Virus record (IMG/VR): IMGVR_UViG_2585427777_000002
Span: 1-37,339 of that record
Length of the DNA stretch: 37,339 nucleotides
Reading direction: 5' to 3' (one strand)
DNA from: a virus
Taxonomy: Duplodnaviria > Heunggongvirae > Uroviricota > Caudoviricetes
Part shown: in pieces, positions 7,474 to 8,109 of the stretch
Layout: each line of letters opens with the position of its first letter
Numbering within the stretch: the stretch's first letter is position 1
The notes under the pieces: model-generated
The model's input: the letters and a program-made list of their open reading frames with translations, nothing else
Databases searched by the model: none
What the model was told of the DNA's origin: nothing
Translations under genes and position numbers: made by a program

Positions 7474-8109
7474 ATGCCACAACAACTGCTGAATCCGGCA
7501 AAGGTAACTGAGGTTTTCGCTCATCTGAACGAAACTCCAGACAACCGCGCCCTGTATTCAGAGTTAGTGAACGGCAACGATGTCACATCTGATGTCAAAG
7601 GCGTTTCTCTGGCTCCTGGATACCGCGTTGTCCGTGTAGACGATCGTAAGAAAGGCGAGATTCCACAGGCGCACTTTGAACTGTCATTGATAAATGACCT
7701 CACCGAAGAGGTAGTGTATTACAATCGTGTCATTATCCAGCCTGACAGCTATCTTAACTGCCGTCCTGTCACGCAGATATTGGTATGGAGAACCCAGAAG
7801 CCTAAGCATCGTGCTGTGCTTCATGATTTCGCTGGCATCATCTTCATGAACTACCTCTTGGAACGGTACGATATCATCGTGTCTGATCGCAACCAGACTC
7901 ATGAAGGCATGTCGTTCTGGCAGGCTCGCATGTATGACGCACTGGAACTTGGCCTCCATCTCTATGGTTACGACATGATGACATGCGAACTTATAGAGAT
8001 GAATAACGAGGAAGAGCTTGAGAAAGGTGAAACCTGGTTGTGGGGTGATGCGGAAAACTTCCAAAACAGATTGGCCATAATTTCAAAGCATAAGCTGCCA
8101 ATAAAATAG
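7474..8109 (+). CDS. hypothetical protein (orphan cargo gene between the inverted repeats)
   Basis: 211 aa ORF with ATG start and GAGGTGA RBS; own operator-containing upstream region and own terminator; no family recognised. Confidence 0.6.
   Translation: MPQQLLNPAKVTEVFAHLNETPDNRALYSELVNGNDVTSDVKGVSLAPGYRVVRVDDRKKGEIPQAHFELSLINDLTEEVVYYNRVIIQPDSYLNCRPVTQILVWRTQKPKHRAVLHDFAGIIFMNYLLERYDIIVSDRNQTHEGMSFWQARMYDALELGLHLYGYDMMTCELIEMNNEEELEKGETWLWGDAENFQNRLAIISKHKLPIK

Follow-up and report, generated by a model that had tools for sequence, protein, structure and literature searches.

What might a gene be doing that lies between two convergent antirepressor genes of a prophage, is present in some phages and absent from close relatives, and encodes a protein that the common domain databases do not recognise? 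The question is raised by the ATG open reading frame (ORF) at 7474..8109 on the plus strand of IMG/VR record IMGVR_UViG_2585427777_000002, of which all 37,339 nucleotides were analysed (hereafter the window) and which is a phiV10/epsilon15-like (Uetakevirus) prophage of E. coli. The ORF encodes a protein of 211 amino acids, and the reading that we favour, with about even confidence, is that it is an accessory gene on an exchangeable cassette, predicted to be controlled through the immunity operator, whose product has a divergent GNAT (acyl-CoA N-acyltransferase-like) fold and probably acts as a transferase.

An earlier note, made from the DNA letters alone, had called the protein an orphan without a family. 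This has to be given up, since PHROG 1349 (unknown function) matched it over its full length at 2.9e-78, hundreds of homologous clusters were found and a GNAT-like fold was predicted. A word-seeded search returned 94 homologs of ~210 amino acids with 36-95% identity across the Enterobacterales (Salmonella, Dickeya, Serratia, Klebsiella, Plesiomonas, Yersinia, Erwinia, Xenorhabdus and Photorhabdus), and an exhaustive profile search gave 916 clusters (at 50% identity) at E<=1e-3 and 413 at E<=1e-10, with distant family members in Aeromonas, Pseudomonas and Providencia. Ten residues (W105, R106, D138, T142, G145, F148, W149, Y164, Y166 and W190) are invariant in alignment A1, W190 being unchanged even among members at 25% identity. 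The protein has no Pfam match at E<=1, no NCBIfam match and no match at E<=1 to the defence families of PADLOC-DB 2.0, and neither phmmer nor the family profile found anything credible among the PDB sequences, with no GNAT among the profile matches. The sole find of a tblastn search against 50,697 phage records was gp57 of phage LLS (30% identity), and a literature search on the protein accession, the PHROG number or DUF5397 returned nothing relevant. The latter domain forms the C-terminus of an E. coli paralog of 270 amino acids (P0111/P0245), which was seen on more than 200 contigs.

The AlphaFold2 model, made from a 40-sequence alignment, has a predicted local distance difference test score of 85.6 and a predicted template modelling (TM) score of 0.82, and displays the mixed alpha/beta core of the GNAT fold. 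Its neighbours in a Foldseek search against the PDB were KKT23, CREBBP/p300, ICL2, ArsN and AAC(2'), and those in BFVD were uncharacterised phage proteins and "NAT_SF" entries. As modelled, then, the protein combines a divergent GNAT fold with an extension at the N-terminus and an extra helix (179-190) preceding the last strand. Conserved polar residues (S137-D138, Q141-T142, R106 and Y164/Y166-D167) lie at the positions of GNAT active sites, and they are conserved across a very wide family. The earlier note had proposed structure prediction with a fold search, and had held that a confident match to a routine structural or replication protein would speak against an accessory function; no such match was found, and the fold together with the presence/absence pattern described next excludes a routine role in structure or replication.

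The gene is carried by a cassette of 723 bp, and the hotspot at which this cassette is gained and lost is flanked by the two convergent antirepressor genes. Exactly this segment (7419-8141) is common to Salmonella-type prophage loci (L068-L071, 88% identity by blastn), E. coli prophages with other cargo match just 6900-7415 and 8142-8225, and the edges of the cassette (7416-7419 and 8141/8142) are sharp. Of 5426 complete E. coli genomes, 522 have the hotspot flanks and 11 have the whole unit (at least 80% of the query), with two more at 78-79% in which the gene lies behind a different left flank. In strains IAI39 and EC0026B, a coding sequence of 636 nt, annotated WP_001136300.1, occupies the identical place. 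The gene is thus present or absent at a single site among similar phages, which is the polymorphism expected of a moron. A foreign base composition of the cassette was rejected, as its 47-49% GC is like that of the surroundings. Where the 211-amino-acid gene is missing, the hotspot may hold genes for a DUF4760 protein and a small membrane protein or, in TL-2011b, for a 59-amino-acid protein, a YafO-family toxin and a small membrane protein; these alternative cargo proteins had no PADLOC match. In other epsilon15-like prophages from IMG/VR (L104-L108 and L111-L113), the same slot downstream of a BRO-N antirepressor gene holds a paralog 30% identical to the 211-amino-acid protein and 86-89% identical to gp57 of the lambdoid phage LLS (LLS 42140-42772). 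In L068-L070 the convergent gene (5696-6079, minus strand) encodes, in place of an antirepressor, a member of the Rap1a family of type VI immunity proteins.

The gene is preceded by a Shine-Dalgarno (SD) sequence, GAGGTG at 7464-7469, four bases ahead of the ATG, and its stop codon is directly followed by the hairpin AAGCCCGC-GAC-GCGGGCTT and a T-run, which a terminator scan ranked first among the terminator-like sites of the region. This hairpin is retained in the Salmonella-type copies and is maintained by paired stem changes (GCCCAC/GTGGGC) in the Dickeya copy, in line with the claim of the earlier note that the gene has its own terminator. The palindrome GTGACATGTCAC, which that note had also counted as part of the unit, is indeed present at the 3' flank, with a second copy at 26099-26110, yet it belongs elsewhere. 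On the minus strand it stands directly 5' of the hairpin AGGCCGC-TTTC-GCGGCCT and the T-run that end the convergent antirepressor gene, at 26099 the plus strand has it four bases ahead of a different terminator hairpin, and variants with at most one mismatch lie at the right junction of L068, L070 and L071. It thus recurs in the company of terminators, and was rejected as a feature of the 211-amino-acid gene, because it pairs with the terminator of the neighbouring gene and the palindrome-terminator pair recurs at 26099.

Operator-like palindromes were found 5' of the gene, as had been claimed, and they are part of a larger set. The window has 16 copies of TTACC-N5-GGTAA with at most one mismatch, where 0.66 would be expected, and no shuffle reached this number. 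Six sites lie in the island around the gene (5891, 6271, 7318, 7419, 9175 and 9761), one at 25063, and the others in the early region (28253/28271, 29951/30013, 31916, 32253/32301 and 33013/33074), where the pairs at 32253/32301 and 33013/33074 bracket the repressor gene. The palindrome usually adjoins a -10 hexamer in a constant geometry, i.e. a -35 hexamer, 17 nt, and a -10 hexamer that shares its final T with the start of the palindrome. The bracketed gene encodes a helix-turn-helix protein of 194 amino acids, 99.5% identical to the phiV10/ZX5 repressor, and overexpression of the ZX5 repressor blocks the lytic cycle (PMC9782041). On the simplest reading, TTACC-N5-GGTAA would be the operator of the phiV10-type repressor; a literature search gave no report of repressor binding to this sequence. 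The distribution of the sites suggests a dispersed operator network, such as that of the P1 C1 repressor, and the literature search gave no account of such a network for Uetakeviruses.

The upstream region of the window has a hybrid order, in which the hotspot promoter with an imperfect operator (7290-7332) is followed by a DUF4760-type leader, the perfect operator of the cassette (7419-7433), the SD sequence and the ORF. The promoter-like site in the hotspot flank is the likely transcription start region of the gene, and a module of this type precedes every cargo type at the hotspot as well as LLS gp57. Most epsilon15-type copies of the gene have a perfect palindrome in the 200 nt ahead of it; a promoter with 17-nt spacing abuts the cassette operator in L068-L071 and L079-L080, and the arrangement is clean in L079. 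In the window, the hotspot promoter 100 nt further upstream stands in for this cassette-abutting promoter. The self-contained promoter of the earlier note is consequently not confirmed here, since the flank supplies the promoter and the cassette itself is without good -35 and -10 hexamers. The 10-codon ORF between the two operators is a leader inherited from a DUF4760-type cassette, and an identical leader stands upstream of the DUF4760 gene in L011 (alignment A3). There (E. coli TUM12368, L011 3121-3215, equivalent to window 7370-7415), the strong SD sequence and the 10-codon ORF are accompanied by a GC-rich hairpin with a T-run (GGGGCC-ATTA-GGCCCC-GTTTT) ahead of the gene, a possible attenuator; the window keeps the short ORF of this type but not the hairpin.

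The flanks of the gene match TL-2011b, phiv142-3, ZX5 and phiV10. The plus-strand island (~5.8-10.3 kb) in which it lies interrupts the minus-strand genes for the tailspike (3015..5786) and an injection protein (10345..13365), and contains four antirepressor-related genes. The gene is thus placed among antirepressor genes, as the earlier note had it, but not inside the structural operon, since the tailspike and injection genes run on the other strand. The inverted repeats between which it had been placed are real as well (279 nt, 95% complementary), but they are the C-terminal coding part shared by the two convergent antirepressor genes, and IAI39 and EC0026B have an identical cassette without the right-hand arm. 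In Rfam searches, each full antirepressor gene was preceded by an isrK RNA and then a C4 antisense RNA, elements that explain the inverted repeats I2 and I3. In the immI region of P1, C4 RNA controls ant in an operon under the primary repressor, and by analogy the island can be regarded as an immI-type region. The accessory nature that had been supposed for the gene holds, as it is exchangeable, lies among antirepressor genes, and has its own terminator and an operator-bearing upstream region. The ORF of 85 amino acids at the left of the island resembles solely the C-terminal domain common to both antirepressors, and homologs of it were seen upstream of the GNAT-like gene in Dickeya prophages.

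Proximity to antirepressor genes recurs in the family. An antirepressor-like gene was found within 1.5 kb in 37 of 113 loci, mostly 117-409 nt upstream and on the same strand, and these loci span several backgrounds (BRO-N, ORF6N with P22_AR_C, and P22_AR_N). Other phage-borne homologs are located behind the lysis genes (LLS), between the tail tube/DUF6246 and tape measure genes (Xenorhabdus and Photorhabdus prophages), or between a baseplate hub gene and a Baseplate_J-domain gene (another prophage type). Outside phages, homologs form chromosomal islets between ihfA and btuE in Erwinia amylovora, between ycgN and hslJ-ldhA or between LuxR solos and RtxA in Photorhabdus, and between yaeH and dapD in Xenorhabdus (for ycgN|hslJ-ldhA and yaeH|dapD the names were recognised from the translated neighbours).

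Following these results, the most likely start of transcription is a sigma-70-type promoter with its -10 hexamer adjoining TTACC-N5-GGTAA, and the palindrome would be bound by the immunity repressor of the phage itself. The gene would then be silent in the stable lysogen and be expressed together with the antirepressors early in infection or upon induction. That the palindrome overlaps the promoter, and also brackets the repressor gene, argues against expression in the repressed prophage and favours a role early in infection or at the time of induction. The product is most likely a transferase, or at least an acyl-donor-binding protein, and may modify a conserved component of the cell or of a rival phage to the benefit of its own phage, i.e. 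for host takeover, counter-defence or exclusion during lytic growth. A transferase acting on a conserved target is probable because polar residues sit at the active-site places of GNATs, and because the E. coli phage copy shares ~60% identity with chromosomal copies in Photorhabdus.

Several observations weigh against this account. The TM-scores to PDB entries are just 0.3-0.44, and the fold can therefore only be called a divergent GNAT, while the top structural neighbour is presumably a regulatory acetyl-CoA-binding domain and no enzyme. At the level of sequence profiles, neither the query nor any of 46 diverse members matched an acetyltransferase family of Pfam, and hhalign gave a probability of 0.2% against both a RimI sequence and a Pfam-annotated PAT-like GNAT from L070. 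The loop past the predicted strand beta4, as read from the secondary structure of the model and alignment A1, is R106-T-Q-K-P-K instead of the canonical Q/R-x-x-G-x-G/A; R106 is conserved and the glycines are missing at the motif A loop position between beta4 and alpha3, a placement made by inspection. Because of this noncanonical loop, acyl-CoA binding is only a candidate property. On the side of regulation, the promoter of the window agrees with the consensus at 7 of 12 positions, below the threshold of 9 of 12 of the consensus scan, which did not call it, and the palindrome is assigned to the repressor by its position only. Finally, many homologs stand alone on the chromosome, flanked by housekeeping genes (Erwinia, Photorhabdus and Xenorhabdus), and no operator was found at the chromosomal copies that were checked. 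The activity of the family must therefore be useful, or at least harmless, to the cell outside the phage cycle.

The chromosomal copies also bear on a first alternative, which takes up the idea of the earlier note (superinfection exclusion, defence or counter-defence, offered there as speculation), namely that the lysogen makes the protein for its own protection. It would do so by superinfection exclusion, by defence against phages, or by inactivating a toxic small molecule in the manner of MccE and of phosphinothricin and aminoglycoside acetyltransferases. Stable single-gene copies in Photorhabdus, Xenorhabdus and Erwinia imply a benefit to the cell, four phage architectures have the gene at a position typical of morons, other cargo at the site or next to it includes a YafO-family toxin and a Rap1a-like immunity protein, and AAC(2'), ArsN and MccE are small-molecule acetyltransferases among the structural neighbours. 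However, with one presumed immunity operator overlapping the promoter and a second in the leader, repression is predicted in exactly the state in which such a gene would have to be expressed, and no PADLOC model fits the protein or the alternative cargo. Protection of the lysogen appears rather unlikely. Lysogeny by ZX5, a related phage without the gene, altered no tested phenotype (PMC9782041), which is uninformative either way for the gene. The apparent absence of the canonical pyrophosphate loop and the lack of a sequence-level GNAT signal, together with the repeated adjacency to antirepressor genes, could also mean that the protein is a non-catalytic binder, which would sequester a ligand (acetyl-CoA) or a protein partner (a repressor or defence protein) much as antirepressors do. 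This is doubtful to a somewhat greater degree, as the conserved polar residues at active-site positions look more enzyme-like, and a conserved A/P-G pair (residues 120-121) at the N-terminus of the predicted helix alpha3 could stand in for the glycine-rich loop.

A bolder version of the favoured reading would make the protein a new type of immunity-module enzyme, i.e. a GNAT-fold transferase that travels with antirepressor genes under the same immunity operator and covalently inactivates a protein that antirepressors only sequester (e.g. the repressor of a competing prophage, or a protein of host defence or regulation), possibly with a non-canonical acyl donor, much as Mom takes aminoacyl-tRNA. 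We consider this improbable; if it were true, the two alleles found at one hotspot, 30% identical, would have diverged to meet different targets. More improbable still is a translation toxin of the TacT, AtaT and KacT type, which would acetylate aminoacyl-tRNA and serve host shut-off or abortive infection; with these toxins the protein has in common the GNAT fold, a similar size and carriage on mobile elements. No conserved partner, small neighbour or antitoxin-like gene accompanies the family across 54 genome loci and 47 viral loci (the 10-codon ORF being the leader of the other cassette), the chromosomal copies are solitary between housekeeping genes, and the structure is closer to protein N-terminal and lysine acetyltransferases than to toxins; a toxin-antitoxin toxin was rejected for want of a partner gene. 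For a nucleic-acid-modifying GNAT like Mom of phage Mu, which would use a donor other than CoA (e.g. aminoacyl-tRNA) to modify DNA and so evade restriction, there is a weak match to a Mom homolog in the BFVD search (rank 44, E 2.8e-3), and Mom has an insertion late in the fold (PMC13219725), while the query too has an extra helix before the last strand. Direct comparison with Mu Mom was negative (hhalign probability 0.2%; best BLASTP segment at E 0.042 over 21 residues), and stand-alone chromosomal copies outside phage contexts do not fit protection of self-DNA; this reading is scarcely credible. A type III secretion effector was rejected, as the N-terminus (MPxxL...) is strongly conserved and the family is present in genera that are not known to have such systems.

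Returning to the accessory transferase that we favour, its closest known systems would be NatD/Naa40, HAT1 and the GNAT-like C-terminal domain of M. tuberculosis ICL2/Rv1916, from which it differs in having just 6-13% sequence identity, no similarity at the level of Pfam or hidden Markov models, and no recognisable Q/R-x-x-G-x-G/A loop. AcrVA5, which acetylates Cas12a, is likewise a small phage GNAT-fold accessory protein that acts on a host or defence component, as are Rac (gp28) of phiKMV/LUZ19 and Mu Mom. Rac triggers cleavage of the RNA polymerase alpha subunit (PMC7552054), and Mom is a DNA-modifying enzyme of GNAT fold that uses Gly-tRNA (PMC13219725). Rac, unlike the 211-amino-acid protein, can be identified as a GNAT from its sequence, and its acetyl-CoA pocket is defined, Mom has no similarity to the family described here, and none of the three is reported as an immunity-operator-controlled cassette beside antirepressors. 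In its genomic position, between tail and injection genes, the locus resembles the immI regions of P22 (mnt-arc-ant, sieA) and P1 (C4 RNA-icd-ant), and both these regions and morons in the adjoining antirepressor genes with C4 antisense RNA leaders. To our knowledge, the described immI regions of P22 and P1 hold no GNAT-like gene. With morons it further shares its own terminator and the presence/absence polymorphism between near-identical phages, but classical morons are active in the repressed prophage, and the promoter of the gene described here bears a presumed immunity operator. In kind, therefore, the gene is ordinary, being a phage accessory gene of a known fold superfamily; what is unusual are the details, i.e. 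a large family missing from the domain databases, an apparently non-canonical cofactor loop, a portable promoter-operator module, adjacency to antirepressor genes, and two deeply divergent alleles at one hotspot.

Table 1. Features of the cassette, its promoters and operators, and the surrounding island (window coordinates unless another genome is named).
Feature	Position	Strand	Details
Exchangeable cassette	7419..8141	+	operator copy, SD, ORF, terminator; blastn
211-amino-acid divergent GNAT-fold protein gene (predicted fold)	7474..8109	+	PHROG 1349 family
Putative intrinsic terminator of 211-amino-acid gene	8116..8138	+	8-bp stem with 6 GC pairs, 3-nt loop, T-run
Promoter-like site	7290..7318	+	TTGCAG-17 nt-TACTAT; in conserved hotspot flank
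Operator-like palindrome 1	7318..7332	.	TTACCTCACGGGTGA, 1 mismatch; begins at last base of -10 hexamer
Likely promoter and operator of 211-amino-acid gene	7290-7332		TTGCAG-17-TACTAT
10-codon upstream ORF	7370..7402	+	MRKFDEHEGV; behind strong SD GGAGGA (7358-7363)
Operator-like palindrome 2	7419..7433	.	TTACCCTAATGGTAA, perfect; at left edge of cassette
Antirepressor promoter	6243-6285		TTGCAA-17-TATATT
Early promoter	33045-33088		TTGACA-17-AATTAT
Promoters upstream of the gene in L068 and L070			TTGGCG-17-TAGAAT (L068); TTGCAG-17-TAATAT (L070)
Promoter upstream of LLS gp57			TTGGCT-17-TACTAT; abuts the only perfect site in the 42.9-kb LLS genome
Prophage repressor gene	32371..32955	+	194 amino acids, HTH_3; presumed binder of operators 7318 and 7419
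Ant-C-terminal-domain-only ORF	5982..6239	+	85 amino acids; start read from EC0026B RefSeq annotation
isrK and C4 RNAs, left	6322-6398 and 6417-6504	+	Rfam
BRO-N antirepressor gene	6508..7245	+	RefSeq annotation
Inverted repeat, left arm	6990..7268	.	3' end of antirepressor gene 6508..7245
Terminator of convergent antirepressor gene	8186..8215	-	hairpin 8203-8186, preceded by GTGACATGTCAC (8215-8204)
Inverted repeat, right arm	8230..8508	.	3' end of antirepressor gene 8253..8903 (-)
Convergent antirepressor gene	8253..8903	-
isrK and C4 RNAs, right	9138-9062 and 9037-8953	-	Rfam
P22_AR_N protein gene	9337..9735		in island

Some further genes of the window were noted in passing. An ORF of 175 amino acids at 9796-10323 (plus strand), with a hydrophobic N-terminus, 34-37% GC against ~47% around it and no Pfam or PADLOC match, has the operator site 9761 ahead of it and is probably another foreign accessory gene. 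Beside the tailspike gene, an ORF of 267 amino acids (2106-2909, plus strand) is found at the position of an EC0026B coding sequence annotated 'acyltransferase' in RefSeq, and may be a serotype-converting gene. A tRNA-Arg (TCT) gene lies at 25400-25476 (plus strand).

As to what this means, a family of ~900 clusters (at 50% identity) that escapes Pfam, NCBIfam and PADLOC gains a predicted acetyltransferase-like fold, and a cargo-exchange hotspot with a portable promoter-operator module is documented in a common group of E. coli prophages. For phiV10-like phages, an operator-bearing promoter like those of the antirepressors provides a testable entry, with a predicted repressor, an operator and candidate residues. 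Should the protein not be an enzyme that acts on repressors or defence proteins, the gene would be another accessory gene of unknown role; if it is such an enzyme, it would add a covalent layer to the cross-talk between prophages.

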